In this document: positions 37,267 to 49,499 of the stretch, one piece after another
Numbering within the stretch: the stretch's first letter is position 1
Layout: every line of letters begins with the position of its first letter
IMG/VR virus record: IMGVR_UViG_3300037781_000042
Coordinates: 147,582 to 211,581 of that record
Direction: 5' to 3' (one strand)
Source: a virus
Lineage: Duplodnaviria; Caudoviricetes
Length of the DNA stretch: 64,000 nucleotides
Program-made: the position numbers and the translations under genes
Notes under the pieces: model-generated
Seen by the model: the letters and a program-made list of their open reading frames with translations, nothing else
Told to the model about the DNA's origin: nothing
The model's database searches: none

Positions 37267-37291
37267 AAAAAAAGAGACCTTAAGTCTCTTT
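37267..37291 (-). terminator. rho-independent terminator overlapping the gp46-fragment stop codon
   Basis: AAAGAGAC-TTAAG-GTCTCTTT followed by a U run on - strand. Confidence 0.75.
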
Positions 37292-37499
37292 AATATTGTA
37301 TATTTGCATACTCTTTAAATTTCTTTTCTAATTCAGGATCATCAAACTTTATACTTATCATAGTATCTGGATGAACGCATTTCCCATGACCATTTTTTCC
37401 TGTCAGTAGGTTTAAAGATCCGGTTTTTTCGAATTTAATTGATTGTGAATTGTTCCCGTACGGTCCAATATTTCTAAATTCAAGTTCTTCTATTTGCAT
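37290..37499 (-). CDS. gp46: gp46/SbcC/Rad50 ATPase N-terminal fragment (40 aa) fused to split-intein N part
   Basis: MQIEELEFRNIGPYGN...LLTGKNGHGK (SbcC N-term + Walker A) then CVHPDTMISI; immediately downstream of gp47. Confidence 0.85.
   Translation of the reverse strand: MQIEELEFRNIGPYGNNSQSIKFEKTGSLNLLTGKNGHGKCVHPDTMISIKFDDPELEKKFKEYANIQY
37293..37379 (-). mobile_element. split intein N-fragment (29 aa)
   Basis: Cys directly after Walker A Lys; C-V-H-P-D-T-x-I matches intein block A; TAA stop follows. Confidence 0.75.
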
Positions 37500-43577: not shown

Positions 43578-44909
43578 TTAATATGTTATCATTTCTTGTG
43601 AAGTGTCTTGAGATATTCTCATATAGTCATAATCAATGTCAAATACTTGAGAACAATTCTTATATCCCGAAGATCTATTTTTAACTATCTTAATATTGTA
43701 CTTTCTATTAGCATACATTATTGCATCTTGCATTATACCAAATCCTAAATCAATTGTATGTCCTAGAGCCGATGATTCTCCCATATCCTCTAATCTTAAG
43801 TCAGTAGACCCATAAGCATTTATCTTTGCTTGAGTAACAGTAATAACTCCCCAATGATTGTTTTTAGCCATTCCTCTTAAATCTTCTGCTACTTGTTTTA
43901 TTTTCATATAAGTATTTTCTGAATTAGGATTTCTCCAATTAGACATAATATTAATATAATCAACTAAAATAACATCTAATTTAAGATTATGAGTTTTTTC
44001 TATTTTATCTACTAAATAAGATTGTAACCCAGGAACAGTTAGTCCATTAGTTGGAAAATCTTCTATAAATAGTTTTCCTAATTTAGCTCCACCTATTAAA
44101 GATTCTGTCTCTTTTCCTTTTTTATATTTTGCTATAGTTTCTTTTGCAAAAATAGGATCGTTCATTTTTTCAAAATAGTGTCCCATTTTTACATTAAACA
44201 TATTTGATCCAATTCTTTCTAGAACTTCATGTTTTGGCATCTCACAAGAAATATAACAAACGTTATGTCCTTGATCAACTAACCATCTAGCAAAAGCACT
44301 TAACCAAATAGATTTACCAATATTAGATTCTCCTACTCCACACCATACAGTACCGGGAGTAATTCCACCTCTTGAAATTTTATCCCAAAATTCAACACCA
44401 AAACTTTTCTTTTCTTCTACTTCATCATAGTAATGAGATTTGGTATCAAATATATCTAATGCAGTCGATTCATAAAAAGAAACAAACCCTTTAGAATTAA
44501 TTATTTGAAGAGTATCGGTACATACCTGTTGAGCATTTTCCATTGTAACGGGTTTATCTCTAAAATATTCTATTCCTTCTTCTAAAGATTTTTCTAAAGA
44601 CTTTACTTGAATCCAACTTTGTAAAGTTTTATTTACCCATTCCTTATCATGTTCTTCGTTTTTAGCATTCCATATAGTATCAATTTTTCCTTCAGTTAAA
44701 ATTTCATGTTCATTTTTAGCCTTAACTACATGCTTTAACATTTCAGTAGTTAATTTAGAATCAGGATATTTTAACTTTAAGGCCTTTGCATATCGATATA
44801 ATCTTGAAATATCAGAATTATCAAAGAAAGAAGATTCAACCTTTAATAAATATTCTGGATTAAGAATTATTTCATGAAAAAATATTTTTTCTAAATTGTA
44901 TGCTTGCAT
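43578..44909 (-). CDS. gp41: gp41/DnaB-family replicative helicase
   Basis: Walker A GESNIGKS, YISCEM, Walker B ILVDYINIM, ITVTQ, KIVKNRS. Confidence 0.9.
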   Translation of the reverse strand: MQAYNLEKIFFHEIILNPEYLLKVESSFFDNSDISRLYRYAKALKLKYPDSKLTTEMLKHVVKAKNEHEILTEGKIDTIWNAKNEEHDKEWVNKTLQSWIQVKSLEKSLEEGIEYFRDKPVTMENAQQVCTDTLQIINSKGFVSFYESTALDIFDTKSHYYDEVEEKKSFGVEFWDKISRGGITPGTVWCGVGESNIGKSIWLSAFARWLVDQGHNVCYISCEMPKHEVLERIGSNMFNVKMGHYFEKMNDPIFAKETIAKYKKGKETESLIGGAKLGKLFIEDFPTNGLTVPGLQSYLVDKIEKTHNLKLDVILVDYINIMSNWRNPNSENTYMKIKQVAEDLRGMAKNNHWGVITVTQAKINAYGSTDLRLEDMGESSALGHTIDLGFGIMQDAIMYANRKYNIKIVKNRSSGYKNCSQVFDIDYDYMRISQDTSQEMITY

Positions 44910-44936
44910 TTATCACCTTTTTAATTTTATTATATC

Positions 44937-46505
44937 CTACTCTTCTTCTAAAGTTTCGTCCGAATCGTCAGTTACTACAGTTTCTTTTAAATGTGATTCA
45001 TTTTCTAATTCTTCTGCTAACATCTCTTCTACAGCATCATACTCAGCAAACATAAATACTTCTTGTAATCTAGAATCAATATAATCTAAATTTTCTTTAG
45101 TGAATATTTCTTTCGCGTATCTCCAAAATTCTTTTGTTTTTATTTGAATAGGTTCTCCGTCTGGTCCGTTTCCTATCACCCAACTTCTAGGAGCTTGAGA
45201 ACTAGAGTGTGGTTCAAATACAGTATTTCCAGTTTTTCTTCTAGCTATTTTACCTGTACCGGTTTCATATTCTTCATATTCATCTACTAATTTTCCAGGA
45301 GCTACTTTACAATTTTCCCAATCTAAATAATCTTGCAAACCTACATACTTATTCATACCTTTATAAAAAGATACGTGAAGAGTAATTGGAATTCCACCTT
45401 TTGTGAATCTTGCTTTTTCTTGTTTAGATTTGATAAGAACTCCAGTTTTCTTGATTTCACTATCAACCTTTTTAGTATCTACATCTTTATCGTCTTCTTT
45501 TTTCAATTGTCTAGTAGATAGCATTAATGAAATAGAAGCACCAAATTTAGCACCCGATCCACCTGAAATTATTTTAGTTGGAATATAAGAACCAATTGCT
45601 TCATAAACGTGAGAAGTAACTATCATAGGAACTCTTTTTACCCTTAATCTAGTAAGTAAAGTTCTAAACATAGCCTTTAATTCTTGTTGTTTAGTCATGT
45701 CTCTTTTATTATTTCCTGAAAGCAAATCTTCTGTTTCTTTATCAGAAGACAAGTTACCTAAAGAATCTAGAACAAACATATATTCACAAGAATTTTCTCC
45801 CGATATTGAATCTAAAATATTAAGCATAACCTGAGACGTTTGTCGAATTGTTTCAACGGGAACTATTACTACATTAGAAGTATCAACACCGATTCTTTCT
45901 AATGTATCATTATCCATTGCGCCTTCAGAATCAAACCAAAATATTTTTGAATCAAAAGATTTTTGAGCTTCTCTAGCAGCATTCATAGATAAAAATGTTT
46001 TACCTGTATTATGATTAGAAAATCCTTCACAAAAATATCTATGATTTTTATGATCTACTTCAAAATCATATACTATAGATTCATCTACTTTTTCGCATTT
46101 AATTAATGGAAGTTCTCCTTTTACCGTTAGAGCAATATCCCCAACTTTAAGTTCTGAAACTTTTTTCCATCCATATTCTTTTGTTTCTATCATGTGATCC
46201 AAAGAACACTTTAATGTTCCTATTTCAGTAGAAACTTCCCAAATATCTCTTTTACTTTTTTCATAGAATTCTATAATTTCTTGATAACCATCAAATGAAT
46301 TAATCATTATTTGTTTATCTCTATGCTTTTCTATTAAATCTTTTATTTTTATTTTTTTCGTGTTTTTTTCACAATGAATATTGAATACCGTATTATAATA
46401 TTCTTCAGAAGAATCGTTTTTTAATTTAGTATTTAACGAAGTATTAATTTCATTAATATCTTCATACCAACATAAAAGTTCTTTTAGTATATCATTTTTA
46501 TTCAT
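44937..46505 (-). CDS. uvsX: split-intein C part (aa 1-166) fused to UvsX/RecA C-terminal extein
   Basis: CSLDH (block B), VYDFEV (block F), HN|T junction, then TGKT, WFDSEGA, VLDSLGNL, IVTSHVY, SGGSG RecA motifs. Confidence 0.9.
   Translation of the reverse strand: MNKNDILKELLCWYEDINEINTSLNTKLKNDSSEEYYNTVFNIHCEKNTKKIKIKDLIEKHRDKQIMINSFDGYQEIIEFYEKSKRDIWEVSTEIGTLKCSLDHMIETKEYGWKKVSELKVGDIALTVKGELPLIKCEKVDESIVYDFEVDHKNHRYFCEGFSNHNTGKTFLSMNAAREAQKSFDSKIFWFDSEGAMDNDTLERIGVDTSNVVIVPVETIRQTSQVMLNILDSISGENSCEYMFVLDSLGNLSSDKETEDLLSGNNKRDMTKQQELKAMFRTLLTRLRVKRVPMIVTSHVYEAIGSYIPTKIISGGSGAKFGASISLMLSTRQLKKEDDKDVDTKKVDSEIKKTGVLIKSKQEKARFTKGGIPITLHVSFYKGMNKYVGLQDYLDWENCKVAPGKLVDEYEEYETGTGKIARRKTGNTVFEPHSSSQAPRSWVIGNGPDGEPIQIKTKEFWRYAKEIFTKENLDYIDSRLQEVFMFAEYDAVEEMLAEELENESHLKETVVTDDSDETLEEE
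46008..46505 (-). mobile_element. split intein C-fragment (long, contains blocks B, F, G)
   Basis: Ends ...EGFSNHN followed by Thr+1 at 46005-46007. Confidence 0.85.
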
Positions 46506-47913
46506 ATTTTTTCTCTATAATGTTAATAATTTTTTCTATAAATTCAGTTTCATTTTGATCTGAATAATATTCATAAACAACAAAACCTTTCTCTTCTGCA
46601 AGTTTTCTTTTTTCTAGATCTCTATTATAATTTTCTTCATAATTAGTTTTATTAAAAGCATGAACCCAATTTTCTTTAATTTCTTCATTCCATTCTGGGT
46701 TAGGATGAACATGTGTTCCGTGATATTCTACTAAAATATTTAATTCAGGGATAGTAAAATCATAAAAATTCATTTTATTATTTCCATAAATTCCATATTC
46801 ATCTTCTCCATATAAAAATGTTAGATTATATTTTTTCTTTTTAGAAGCAAAATAGTGTTCGATTTCTTTAAACATTTTATATGACTCTTTACTTGAACCA
46901 TACTTAAAATTAAAAGATTTAATACTCGATCGCAATGAATTCATTCTATTTTCTTGTCTTACAATAAACTTTTCTGTTCCTTCTCTTTCACCATATTTTT
47001 CTACATGATATTCTAAAGAAGCATTCGCATTCGCTTTTTTAATTTTGTTTTTAGTATGCTCGTCTAAAAGTTCCATAGAATTTTGCCATTTTTTCTGTCT
47101 TTCATTAAAAATTCTATTTCCTTCTTTTTCGCCATATTTTTCTATACAATATTTTAAAGAAAAAGTAGACTGTCTTTCTTTTAATTTTTCAATAGCTTCT
47201 TCTTCTGAAAAACCTTTAGCTTCATAAAATTCTTTAAATACATTCATTCCTTTTTTATACTCCTTTGGATTAGTATATTTCTTAGAATGCCTTTTTAAAG
47301 ATCTTTTTCTTTGCGTTTTAAAAATTTCTTCTTTGGCTTCTTCTTCTGAAAAACCTCTTTCTAAATAATATTCTAAATGAAGATTATTATTTTTTTCAAT
47401 ATAAGATTTCCATTTTTTCTCTATCTCTTTTTCTGAAAAGCCTTCTTTTTTCCATTTTTTCTTTTTTCTTTTTTTCACTGACCATTCGTAACCGGTTTTT
47501 CTTCTATTGTCTAAAGATTTTTTAGAATTTTTAGCTTGTATTTTTGAAATTTCTTCTTTAGCTTCTTCTTCTGAAAAACCTTTTTTTATCCAAAATTCCA
47601 CACAAAATCTAGATCTACTTTTATCTAATATTTTTTTATATTTCTTTGCTAATAATTCAGCTTCTTTTTTAGAATAGTTTCTTTCAATCCAATATTCTAA
47701 ATGATGTTTCTTTAAATCTATATTTAAAGGTAAAAGTATCTTAATAGAATTTTTTCTTGAATATGTAGAATATTTTTCTTTATATTTTAAGTAGAAATTT
47801 TCAAAATTAACTTTTTCTAAATCACTAAATATTTTGTTTATCTCAATGATGTAGTCTTCTTTTGACAATATTTCTTTTTGCGCAAATATATTTTTTAGTT
47901 CCAGGCTTGTCAT
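46498..47913 (-). CDS. free-standing homing endonuclease, Vsr-like (EDxHD / PD-(D/E)xK) with helical repeats
   Basis: C-term FYDFTIPELNILVEYHGTHVHP; repeats (F/Y)xxxKGFSEEEA x4-5 and EKYGExEG x2; sits between the two uvsX halves. Confidence 0.75.
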   Translation of the reverse strand: MTSLELKNIFAQKEILSKEDYIIEINKIFSDLEKVNFENFYLKYKEKYSTYSRKNSIKILLPLNIDLKKHHLEYWIERNYSKKEAELLAKKYKKILDKSRSRFCVEFWIKKGFSEEEAKEEISKIQAKNSKKSLDNRRKTGYEWSVKKRKKKKWKKEGFSEKEIEKKWKSYIEKNNNLHLEYYLERGFSEEEAKEEIFKTQRKRSLKRHSKKYTNPKEYKKGMNVFKEFYEAKGFSEEEAIEKLKERQSTFSLKYCIEKYGEKEGNRIFNERQKKWQNSMELLDEHTKNKIKKANANASLEYHVEKYGEREGTEKFIVRQENRMNSLRSSIKSFNFKYGSSKESYKMFKEIEHYFASKKKKYNLTFLYGEDEYGIYGNNKMNFYDFTIPELNILVEYHGTHVHPNPEWNEEIKENWVHAFNKTNYEENYNRDLEKRKLAEEKGFVVYEYYSDQNETEFIEKIINIIEKKYE

Positions 47914-47957
47914 AATGTTTTATTTTTATATATCACATTACAGGTGAACCTGGAACT
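47897..47957 (-). promoter_or_regulatory. RNA hairpin occluding the endonuclease start codon, with GATATATA motif in the loop
   Basis: AGTTCCAGG/CCTGGAACT 9-bp perfect stem plus TAATGT/ACATTA upper stem that includes the A of ATG (47913); GATATATA at 47927-47934. Confidence 0.6.
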
Positions 47958-47964
47958 GGAAATT

Positions 47965-48255
47965 CTATAACTTTGTTAAATCTTTAAAATTTTCAGATTT
48001 ACCTATATAAACTTCTATTTCTTGATCAGGGTGTAAACAACCCGGATCCCCTGCCAGAAGTAACACTCTCCCTTCAGGAAGGCCTCTATAAATAGACCCT
48101 GTCATTTGAGCATTAAGTAGATAATTACCCATATCTACCCAATTATTAATTTTAAAAGTATCATCTTCTGAAACTACATTTGCAGAAGGAACTATATCTT
48201 GTACTTTATTTAAAATGGATGCAAAATCCATTGATTCATTTTTCTTTTTAGCCAT
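47965..48255 (-). CDS. uvsX: UvsX/RecA N-terminal extein (72 aa) fused to split-intein N part
   Basis: MGNYLLNAQMTG...GLPEGRVLLLAGDPG (RecA N-term, first half of Walker A) then CLHPDQEIEVY. Confidence 0.9.
   Translation of the reverse strand: MAKKKNESMDFASILNKVQDIVPSANVVSEDDTFKINNWVDMGNYLLNAQMTGSIYRGLPEGRVLLLAGDPGCLHPDQEIEVYIGKSENFKDLTKL
47968..48039 (-). mobile_element. split intein N-fragment (24 aa)
   Basis: CLHPDQEIEVYIGKSENFKDLTKL*; intein block A. Confidence 0.8.
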
Positions 48256-48275
48256 AATTTCTTTTTTATTATTTT

Positions 48276-49499
48276 TTAAAATAGTGGAGATGATGTAAAT
48301 AAGTTATTGTCAATTGGCGGTTTATCTAAAGCTCGAATATAAGCATTTAAAGGAGCTAGAAAACTTTTTTCAAATTGAGCTTCTTTGTCTATTTCAGGAG
48401 CAAATTGATAAGGGAACATATTTGGTAAATAAGCAAATCTATCACATTTATCAATTGGAATTTCAGCGCAATACCATTTAACAGAATCTTTAGATTTTAT
48501 CATTGGATATTTTTGTTTATACTGAGATTCGGTAGTATTTAATAGATGATTATAATATGCTGCTCCTTTAGCTTGATAAGTTGCTCCTTTGTTAAAGATT
48601 AAATCTTTTCCATCTGAAACAATATGTTTATCGTAATCGTTTACAGTTACTGTTTTTGCTATTACATCAATGTCTTGTAAGAAGTATTCTTCTTTAATTG
48701 TTTTTACCTTTGATAATAGTTCAGGCATATTTATTTTACCCCTTTCACTATTTAGAATATCTACAATAGTTTTTTCTAAAATGTTTTTTACATATTTAGG
48801 GGTAGATGATTGAACTACTTCTCCTCCAGTAAAATTAAATTTTTTGTTTTTCTTATAGAATAATCCATTTTTTCCACCTTCTGTCCACGAAACATCTAGA
48901 ACATATTTTTTAGGAGCTGCTAGAATACCTGATCTACAGATTTTTTCAAGTTCTAAATTATGTAAATTTTCTACGCCAAAATGAGCTGCATAATTATCAA
49001 AAAATTTCTTTAGATAAGAATTTAATCTATTATTCCAAATATCTAGAATAAAATGAGTTCCTCCAAATTCTTTATCTTCAGAATATTTTTCAGGAAGAGT
49101 ACAATTTTCAAATACTTCATCTAATGAAAAATATACTGAATCTGTATCACAATAAATAGCTACATTTTTTATTGGAGGTTGAACATCTGAAACTTCCATA
49201 ATTTCATGAAGTTTAGTATCTTTAGGCCATACTTCTTGAAAATATTTATTGAACATTTTTTCTGTAGATTGTGTAATATGTCTTCCCATCGCAGTAACAG
49301 TAGATGCAATTGCATAACTGAAGAAATGGAAATAAGGACTTGCAAAAACACCATACATTGAATTAATAGAGATCTTTATAGACATCTGATTTGCATCTAA
49401 AATGGCATATTCAGTTTCATACTCATTTAAAAGTTCTTTTAATTCAGATGTACTTAAATTGCTTAGATATTCGTCTGTTATTTTTTCTACTGGAGTCAT
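48276..49499 (-). CDS. gp43: family B DNA polymerase, C-terminal subunit only (gp43B-like)
   Basis: KISINSMYG (motif B), YCDTDS (motif C), KKYVL; exonuclease domain and motif A absent. Confidence 0.85.
   Translation of the reverse strand: MTPVEKITDEYLSNLSTSELKELLNEYETEYAILDANQMSIKISINSMYGVFASPYFHFFSYAIASTVTAMGRHITQSTEKMFNKYFQEVWPKDTKLHEIMEVSDVQPPIKNVAIYCDTDSVYFSLDEVFENCTLPEKYSEDKEFGGTHFILDIWNNRLNSYLKKFFDNYAAHFGVENLHNLELEKICRSGILAAPKKYVLDVSWTEGGKNGLFYKKNKKFNFTGGEVVQSSTPKYVKNILEKTIVDILNSERGKINMPELLSKVKTIKEEYFLQDIDVIAKTVTVNDYDKHIVSDGKDLIFNKGATYQAKGAAYYNHLLNTTESQYKQKYPMIKSKDSVKWYCAEIPIDKCDRFAYLPNMFPYQFAPEIDKEAQFEKSFLAPLNAYIRALDKPPIDNNLFTSSPLF

Follow-up and report, generated by a model that had tools for sequence, protein, structure and literature searches.

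Split inteins with very short N-terminal parts have been described in two positions: after the second β-strand (S1 site), as in VidaL and PolB16, with N parts of 16 and 15 amino acids (aa), and after helix α1 (S2 site), as in AceL-TerL (25 aa) and GOS-TerL, with N parts of 25-37 aa; VidaL splices quickly (PMC13014065). Insertion of inteins into the P-loops of recombination and replication ATPases has likewise been described (PMC4760082), as have fractured genes, in which the two halves, each fused to a part of a split intein, are separated by a free-standing endonuclease gene (Dassa et al. 2009, PMC2677866). The prototype of the EDxHD homing endonucleases is I-Bth0305I (PDB 3R3P; PMC3239194). 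Here we analyze a locus that combines these components, the uvsX recombinase gene at positions 44937-48255 (minus strand) of a 64-kb window, the whole stretch of viral DNA under study, which forms the final part of the 211,581-bp record IMGVR_UViG_3300037781_000042 (completeness ~82% according to CheckV). We estimate at about 85% the probability that this is a fractured uvsX whose product is made by protein trans-splicing, with a class 1 split intein that is broken after the second β-strand, carries an extra three-helix domain, and encloses a free-standing endonuclease gene of the Vsr/EDxHD type.

Interruption of uvsX within the Walker A motif

The locus consists of three consecutive minus-strand open reading frames (ORFs). 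The first, referred to as the N gene (47965-48255, 96 aa), comprises 72 aa of UvsX ending with the first half of the Walker A motif (…LLLAGDPG; 48040-48255), which are collinear with residues 1-72 of the 428-aa database protein P0002, followed by a 24-aa tail starting with Cys. The third, the C gene (44937-46505, 522 aa), opens with 166 non-UvsX residues ending in HN (Asn166 in …FSNHN) and continues from residue 167 with TGKTFL and altogether 356 aa of UvsX (44937-46007), which are 99% identical to P0002 residues 73-428. Between the two lies an ORF of 471 aa (46498-47913). In the UvsX profile phrog_97 of the PHROG collection, positions 2-83 are covered by the N gene (E = 7e-08) and positions 82-318 by the C gene from its residue 165 onward (E = 8e-39), so that the two UvsX pieces abut exactly. 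The C gene also passes the Pfam RecA model (PF00154, 38.6 bits against a cut-off of 27, E = 1e-09), and the two profiles together delineate a RecA ATPase core with its Walker A motif. This bears out the original prediction, which had placed a cut of Walker A as GDPG/TGKT at these ORFs; the joined pieces differ from P0002 by only 3 residues. The halves are separate genes, given that a TAG stop codon ends the tail of the N gene and the C gene has its own ATG, the position of which agrees with the N-termini of ~28 homologs.

Intein-free uvsX alleles, which the original prediction had suggested seeking in related phages, were found on contigs L001, L013, and L014, the first being ~97% identical to the window in DNA. 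L001 encodes P0002 in an uninterrupted uvsX that is bordered by the same two genes as in the window, those of the polymerase and the helicase; the flanking genes share 96-97% DNA identity, or 90% over one distal block. The intact uvsX of L001 implies that the window holds a precise insertion of 2,032 bp (46008-48039), as delimited with blastn and a codon alignment against L001. The cassette is located in frame within the Walker A codons, and joining of the exteins restores GDPGTGKT.

Over the exteins, the window and L001 differ at 61 of 1,287 bases (4.7%), and ten of these differences, all silent, are concentrated between positions -13 and +17 of the junction (p = 0.0008 for any 40-nt window reaching the observed count upon permutation of third-position changes). 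Four are found in the last 13 nt of the N-extein (48040-48052) and six in the first six codons of the C-extein (45990-46007), where five of the six codons are affected. Further alleles show in which direction the sequence changed. In the intein-free contigs L001, L013, and L014, the junction is preceded by CCA, and the Thr+1 codon is followed by GGA AAA ACY TTC; in the window, CCG GGT precedes the junction, as in the intein-carrying contig L009, and ACA GGT AAA ACA TTT TTA follows it. The best reading of these sequences is that the silent cluster represents a short tract of co-conversion, dating from the transfer of the cassette from a donor allele.

In L001 (8205-8225), the insertion point falls within a 5-3-5 inverted repeat (TCCAG GAA CTGGA), close to its center; the repeat is missing from the joined flanks of the window. 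Its rough chance expectation is ~0.1 and we do not use it as evidence; by analogy with I-Bth0305I, it could be a pseudo-palindromic core site of the endonuclease, or it could have arisen by chance.

Given that the window is metagenomic and that an uninterrupted allele exists in a related population, reads from different phages might in principle have been joined into a chimera, the real gene being uninterrupted. We find this barely credible. In a sampled-word comparison, the stretch was traced to pond-metagenome sequencing runs, of which 12 have Logan contigs containing at least 0.7 of the sampled words, and six of these 12 are not marked as a possible source of the record; no RNA run is listed among the runs containing the stretch. 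Moreover, the same three-gene order is found on the independent contigs L009 and L011 as well as in the finished genome of an isolate, the Pseudomonas jumbo phage PA5oct, and the junctions in the window are in frame with canonical intein ends.

The split intein and the position of its break

When the first 167 residues of the C gene were compared with PDB sequences using phmmer, the best match was VidaL (6vgv; E = 4e-15, residues 49-165 against chain positions 23-141), with the inteins of DnaX, gp41-1, and Mtu RecA ranking next. An AlphaFold2 (AF2) model of the C-part, built with 32 homologs (mean predicted local distance difference test score, pLDDT, 88), displays three helices, a fourth helix at residues 54-61, and then a β-rich Hint core. 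The top Foldseek match to this model is again 6vgv (E = 1e-10, TM score 0.70 by target, 34% identity), and the 49 PDB matches at E ≤ 0.001 consist of 48 inteins and one bacterial intein-like domain. The Hint-fold C-part thus defined by phmmer and Foldseek (residues 48-166; 46008-46364) includes α1, block B with His104, block F with Asp147, and block G with His165 and Asn166. All four residues are invariant in the 32 sequences; in block B, the window intein has Ser in place of the Thr of the TxxH motif. On the N side, Cys directly follows GDPG, as expected of the nucleophile of a class 1 intein, and the same holds for seven related N genes. The residue at position +1, the threonine of which had been regarded as unusual, is Thr or Ser in 32 of the 32 homologs, and Thr+1 is hence the rule of the family rather than a peculiarity of the window.

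The intein had been predicted to consist of a 24-aa N part and a C part of ~166 aa with blocks B, F, and G. The Cys-initiated tail is indeed present, but only its first 13-16 residues are conserved or predicted to dock, and although the blocks of the C part are conserved, its first ~47 residues form a separate three-helix domain. The tails of seven independent N genes have in common only the pattern C-L-x-x-x-x-x-[IV]-x-[VI]-Y-[IV], beyond which they diverge, with conservation ending after ~14 residues; those of the metagenomic relatives are 24-33 aa long, compared to 17 aa for PA5oct. A search of PDB sequences with the N-gene tail gave no match, the query being too short. Prediction of a complex between N-gene residues 55-96 and C-gene residues 1-180 yielded a score of 0.72, compared to 0.01 for the best control, thereby passing a mark that is reached by 51 of 78 solved complexes and two of 108 mismatched pairs, although the pass may partly reflect likeness to the solved structure of fused VidaL. 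At least 63% of contacts were common to the three runs, with partner pLDDT of at least 53. The confident predicted interface involves N-gene residues 70-88, that is, DPG and the first 16 intein residues, and, on the C side, residues 44-69, 98-105 (block B), 143-148 (block F), and 164-167 (the C-terminal junction). The prediction supports, without demonstrating, association of the two polypeptides.

Because conservation, the predicted interface, and the VidaL alignment, in which the C-gene helix 54-61 (α1) corresponds to VidaL residues 23-35, all put α1 on the C gene, the split would lie after β2, at the S1 site. Accordingly assigned, the functional N part is a predicted β1-β2 hairpin of ~16 aa, Cys1 plus 15 residues (CLHPDQEIEVYIGKSE; 47992-48039). 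The remaining eight residues of the tail (NFKDLTKL, with the TAG stop at 47965-47991) are neither conserved among the relatives nor part of the confident interface, and in P0035, a relative with a contiguous intein, the corresponding position is a linker to the helical domain. An S2 split like that of AceL-TerL, which had been offered as the comparison and to which a resemblance between NFKDLTKL and α1 might point, was rejected on account of this lack of conservation and docking and of the VidaL homology, which places α1 on the C part; VidaL, a homolog with an N part of ~16 aa ending after β2, is the more fitting comparison. The resemblance itself, between NFKDLTKL (47968-47991) and the α1 segment IKIKDLIEKH of the C gene (46325-46360, both on the minus strand) as well as the same segment of the contiguous intein P0024, may be a sequence remnant of a duplication that took place when the endonuclease gene entered the intein.

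A predicted interface speaks to association only and not to chemistry, and the fragments of a phage ribonucleotide reductase are reported to assemble via domains derived from a mobile element (PMC3045599). The intein fragments could, by this precedent, be a non-covalent dimerization module that holds the UvsX pieces together in the absence of splicing. We consider this highly unlikely: the break is inside the P-loop (GDPG/TGKT), where ~190 extra residues would very likely block ATP binding; all residues of the splicing chemistry are conserved across the family, although a pure docking module would have no need of them; and the closest relative, VidaL, is a fast splicer. Trans-splicing thus remains our preferred reading of the split intein.

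The N-terminal 47 residues of the C gene (46365-46505) are modeled with pLDDT >90 as helices 3-11, 17-24, and 34-47. This domain is conserved in ~28 split relatives, with dN/dS (the ratio of nonsynonymous to synonymous substitution rates) of ~0.21 between L009 and L011, a rough value due to saturated dS. It is missing from the crystallized VidaL and from the C-part of PA5oct, the alignments of both with the C gene starting only near residue 49. Three contiguous inteins (P0035, P0043, and P0045) contain the domain as an internal insert between the β1-β2 hairpin and α1, whereas the contiguous P0024 does not have it. We tentatively suggest, as a possibility with the odds against it, that the domain is a new accessory module of atypically split inteins, which might act as a built-in cap or chaperone preserving the solubility of the incomplete Hint fold or as a gate on docking of the 16-aa peptide. 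If so, it would tune the timing of active UvsX production.

The endonuclease and the wider family

The product of the 471-aa ORF (46498-47913) belongs to no Pfam or PHROG family and has no match among PDB sequences. It has 196 homologs, a few of which are annotated as Vsr or DUF559, and in an alignment with 35 of them D385, E396, and H403 are invariant, whereas G399 and D432 are conserved in at least 90%. A profile of this family weakly matches Vsr and the DUF559 protein 3hrl (E = 0.004-0.02), in an alignment that keeps the spacing of Vsr residues D51, G65, H69, and D97 and places the family Glu at Vsr F62; Glu at this position is specific to the fractured-gene endonuclease family (Dassa et al. 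2009, PMC2677866). The AF2 model (pLDDT 84) gives only weak Foldseek matches as a whole (E > 0.1). However, its C-terminal nuclease domain (residues 339-471; 46501-46899) is aligned by VIA-align with 3hrl (Z = 10.5, root-mean-square deviation 2.3, 91 residues aligned), with I-Bth0305I (3r3p; Z = 10.0, root-mean-square deviation 2.7, 95 of 97 residues), and with Vsr (1cw0 and 1vsr; Z = 9.7 and 9.0, respectively). The N-terminal region consists of about six helical repeats (W/Y..KGxSEEEA..), to which no Pfam or PHROG family matches. The prediction of a Vsr-like nuclease gene between the two halves is upheld by the Z score of ~10 to I-Bth0305I and the conserved active-site residues. By modeled fold and active-site residues, the protein is a Vsr-like homing endonuclease of the EDxHD type, with presumptive cleavage activity.

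The endonuclease gene lies on the same strand as both halves, and its stop codon overlaps the start of the C gene (ATGAATAA). A predicted hairpin lies over its start: at 47897-47957 (minus strand), the upstream region pairs with codons 3-6 and covers the AUG, with a minimum free energy of -22.2 kcal/mol (z = -4.7; none of 200 shuffled sequences fold as well). Its loop contains an A/T-rich motif resembling T4 late promoters, and L009, L011, and PA5oct likewise have hairpins at this place. A start hairpin with a late-promoter-like motif is a described feature of fractured genes (PMC2677866). A group I intron was also considered and rejected, because an Rfam search of 44800-48400 returned neither an intron nor any other family, the only row being a sub-threshold miRNA model on the hairpin. 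Promoter and terminator scans gave counts close to those of shuffled sequences.

Far from being rare, as the original prediction assumed in overrating the novelty of the locus, the arrangement is widespread. With an exhaustive profile search, 697 cluster representatives were recovered at E ≤ 1e-10, of which 47 reach E ≤ 1e-30. Among the best 150 representatives, judged by the listed coordinates, ~100 begin with a C-part of this kind, ~45 with the helical domain followed by the C-part and ~50 directly with a VidaL-like C-part. HN followed by T/S-G-K was found in 45 of the best 120 C-gene homologs, mostly ~156-167 residues from the N-terminus. Contiguous inteins are also found among the relatives. 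The N and C genes are intact in L002, L003, L004, L009, L010, L011, and L012, but the endonuclease is intact and homologous only in L009 and L011, decayed in L002, L003, and L012, and absent from L004 and L010. The split itself is therefore maintained, since five of these loci keep both genes with a decayed endonuclease or none. Among cultured phages, PA5oct (NC_071039.1, 134722-137728) and its relatives have uvsX interrupted in the same manner and at the same point of the P-loop. In PA5oct, the N gene gp276 ends with a Cys-initiated tail of 17 aa, gp275 encodes repeats of the same type along with an EDxHD-like nuclease motif, and gp274 opens with a VidaL-like C-part that terminates in HN/SGK. 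In the database record, gp276 and gp275 are annotated as hypothetical and gp274 as a UvsX-like recombinase; for MIJ3, a related phage, a split intein has been described in PolB, but the paper does not mention the one in uvsX. PA5oct gp274 is marked as detected by electrospray ionization tandem mass spectrometry, and junction peptides may already exist in published data.

Inteins were also observed in other genes of these contigs (L002 6076-7305 and L010 351-1055): a ThyX gene, with the domain order Thy1 - Intein_splicing - Thy1, and a fragment of DNA polymerase B. From their sequences, the related phage groups appear to be rich in inteins.

Several points weigh against our reading of the locus. 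The search for Hint or intein domains, which had been proposed as a check, produced the match to VidaL in sequence and structure, but the Pfam Intein_splicing model scores only 20.6 bits, below its gathering cut-off of 35.8, which is to be expected given that the N-terminal block A is on another polypeptide. Between L009 and L011, the intein parts have the same dN/dS as the exteins (~0.2; 0.19 for the Hint part and 0.23 for the extein), which speaks for selection on the intein, but dS is saturated and the values are rough. Over its right 18 nt, the window flank is identical to the intein-carrying L004 and differs from L001, L013, and L014, but the flank codons of the window are the commonest A/T-rich ones, which weakens this identity. 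Finally, acquisition of the cassette looks recent, such that intact ORFs in one genome say little about function; the functional argument therefore rests on the relatives.

The last point bears directly on the possibility that the cassette has recently inactivated uvsX and that the pieces are a fresh, not yet decayed pseudogene. With flanks 95-97% identical to the intein-free sister, intact ORFs alone prove little in this respect. Nevertheless, we deem such inactivation very improbable, as the cassette family is under purifying selection in many phages, including loci without the endonuclease, and the insertion is exactly in frame, at a site where splicing restores the P-loop; furthermore, assembly of the arrangement from at least 12 runs implies that the carrier phage is established in its habitat. 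Collectively, chimeric assembly, a dimerization module, and a fresh pseudogene account for only a small share of the overall probability.

Under the trans-splicing reading, the N and C polypeptides would associate as the ~16-residue N hairpin docks into the C-part, and Cys1, Thr+1, and Asn166 would carry out the reaction, yielding a 428-aa UvsX with a restored P-loop; active recombinase would thus require trans-splicing of the two halves. In co-infection, the endonuclease would cut intein-free uvsX alleles, and repair would copy the whole cassette along with a few flanking bases into the cut allele. The hairpin probably keeps the endonuclease untranslated on read-through transcripts, whereas the late-promoter-like motif within it would permit translation late in infection.

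In a region of 20-34% GC, uvsX is surrounded by a T4-like replication and recombination module, with the C-terminal half of a family-B DNA polymerase and a DnaB/gp41-type helicase as neighbors and a gp47-like Metallophos protein farther along. The polymerase ORF (48276-49499, minus strand) covers the C-terminal half only (Pfam positions 134 onward; full length of phrog_1918) and is devoid of intein motifs. Because an ORF of equal length is present at the same place in L001, L013, L014, and L004, a two-gene polymerase seems to be normal for this phage group. Immediately following the gp47-like gene, a 69-aa ORF (37290-37499, minus strand) encodes 40 aa of a gp46/Rad50-like N-terminus, which stops at the Walker A Lys (GKNGHGK) and is followed by a 29-aa Cys-initiated tail (CVHPDTMISIKF…) resembling the uvsX intein N part. 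No partner C-part was found in the 211-kb record with the family profile, PF14890, or PF13558, but the record is ~82% complete and the PF14890 search is insensitive, as it failed to detect even the C-part of uvsX. In L001, an ORF of equal length (69 aa) occupies the corresponding position.

Comparison with described systems

In both sequence and structure, the window intein is most similar to VidaL (PDB 6VGV/6VGW), which is likewise Cys-dependent and has an N part of ~16 aa. Unlike VidaL, to which it is about one-third identical, it carries the ~47-aa three-helix domain at the N-terminus of its C-part and eight non-conserved residues after the docking peptide. Split inteins from Lake Vida have reportedly been found in UvsX genes. 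AceL-TerL and GOS-TerL share with the window intein a natural split near the N-terminus, an origin from phage-like metagenomic contigs, and a similar tail length (25 versus 24 aa); however, they are split after α1, whereas in the window α1 (residues 54-61) is encoded by the C gene, so that the split is one structural element earlier. The closest cultured counterpart, PA5oct gp276-gp275-gp274, differs in being free of the three-helix domain, in having Ser rather than Thr at +1, and in sharing only 31% intein identity with the window.

The organization of the locus is that of the fractured genes (PMC2677866), with an N half fused to an intein N-part, an endonuclease gene on the same strand, and a C half fused to a C-part. 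In those cases, too, the interrupted genes are phage genes of DNA metabolism, the endonuclease is Vsr-like, and its start is covered by a hairpin with a late-promoter-like motif. However, all split inteins modeled in that study were fitted to the canonically split DnaE, in contrast to the split near the N-terminus in the window, and uvsX is not among the eight fractured enzyme types, UvsX appearing only as a neighboring gene. I-Bth0305I resembles the window endonuclease in its nuclease domain, which superposes, in the presence of an N-terminal helical region, putatively of the DNA-binding type in the window protein, and in having a recA-family gene as its target, as presumed for the window endonuclease. 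Yet, I-Bth0305I is encoded by a group I intron, contains two NUMOD-type motifs, and targets the L2 region, whereas the window endonuclease is free-standing inside a split intein and presumably targets the P-loop, and sequence similarity between the two is below detection.

Split inteins with short N parts are sought for semisynthesis and live-cell labeling, because the N peptide can be made chemically (PMC13014065). The window element contributes to this set a relative of VidaL that has Thr+1 and an additional domain, along with a large, mostly unexplored family to mine. The pair of ~97% identical phages with and without the cassette offers a clean natural before-and-after case, in which a split intein and its free-standing endonuclease are transferred together and leave a short co-conversion scar, and the previously unrecognized occurrence of the same arrangement in cultured Pseudomonas jumbo phages means that bench testing is possible there, unlike for a metagenomic contig. 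Each component of the locus is of a described kind, be it the fractured gene (PMC2677866), the EDxHD endonuclease (PMC3239194), the N part of 15-16 aa (PMC13014065), or the intein in a P-loop (PMC4760082). What is added here is the pair of filled and empty alleles with its co-conversion scar, the recognition of the arrangement as widespread, cultured phages included, and the conserved three-helix domain, which is the sole feature that we call new.

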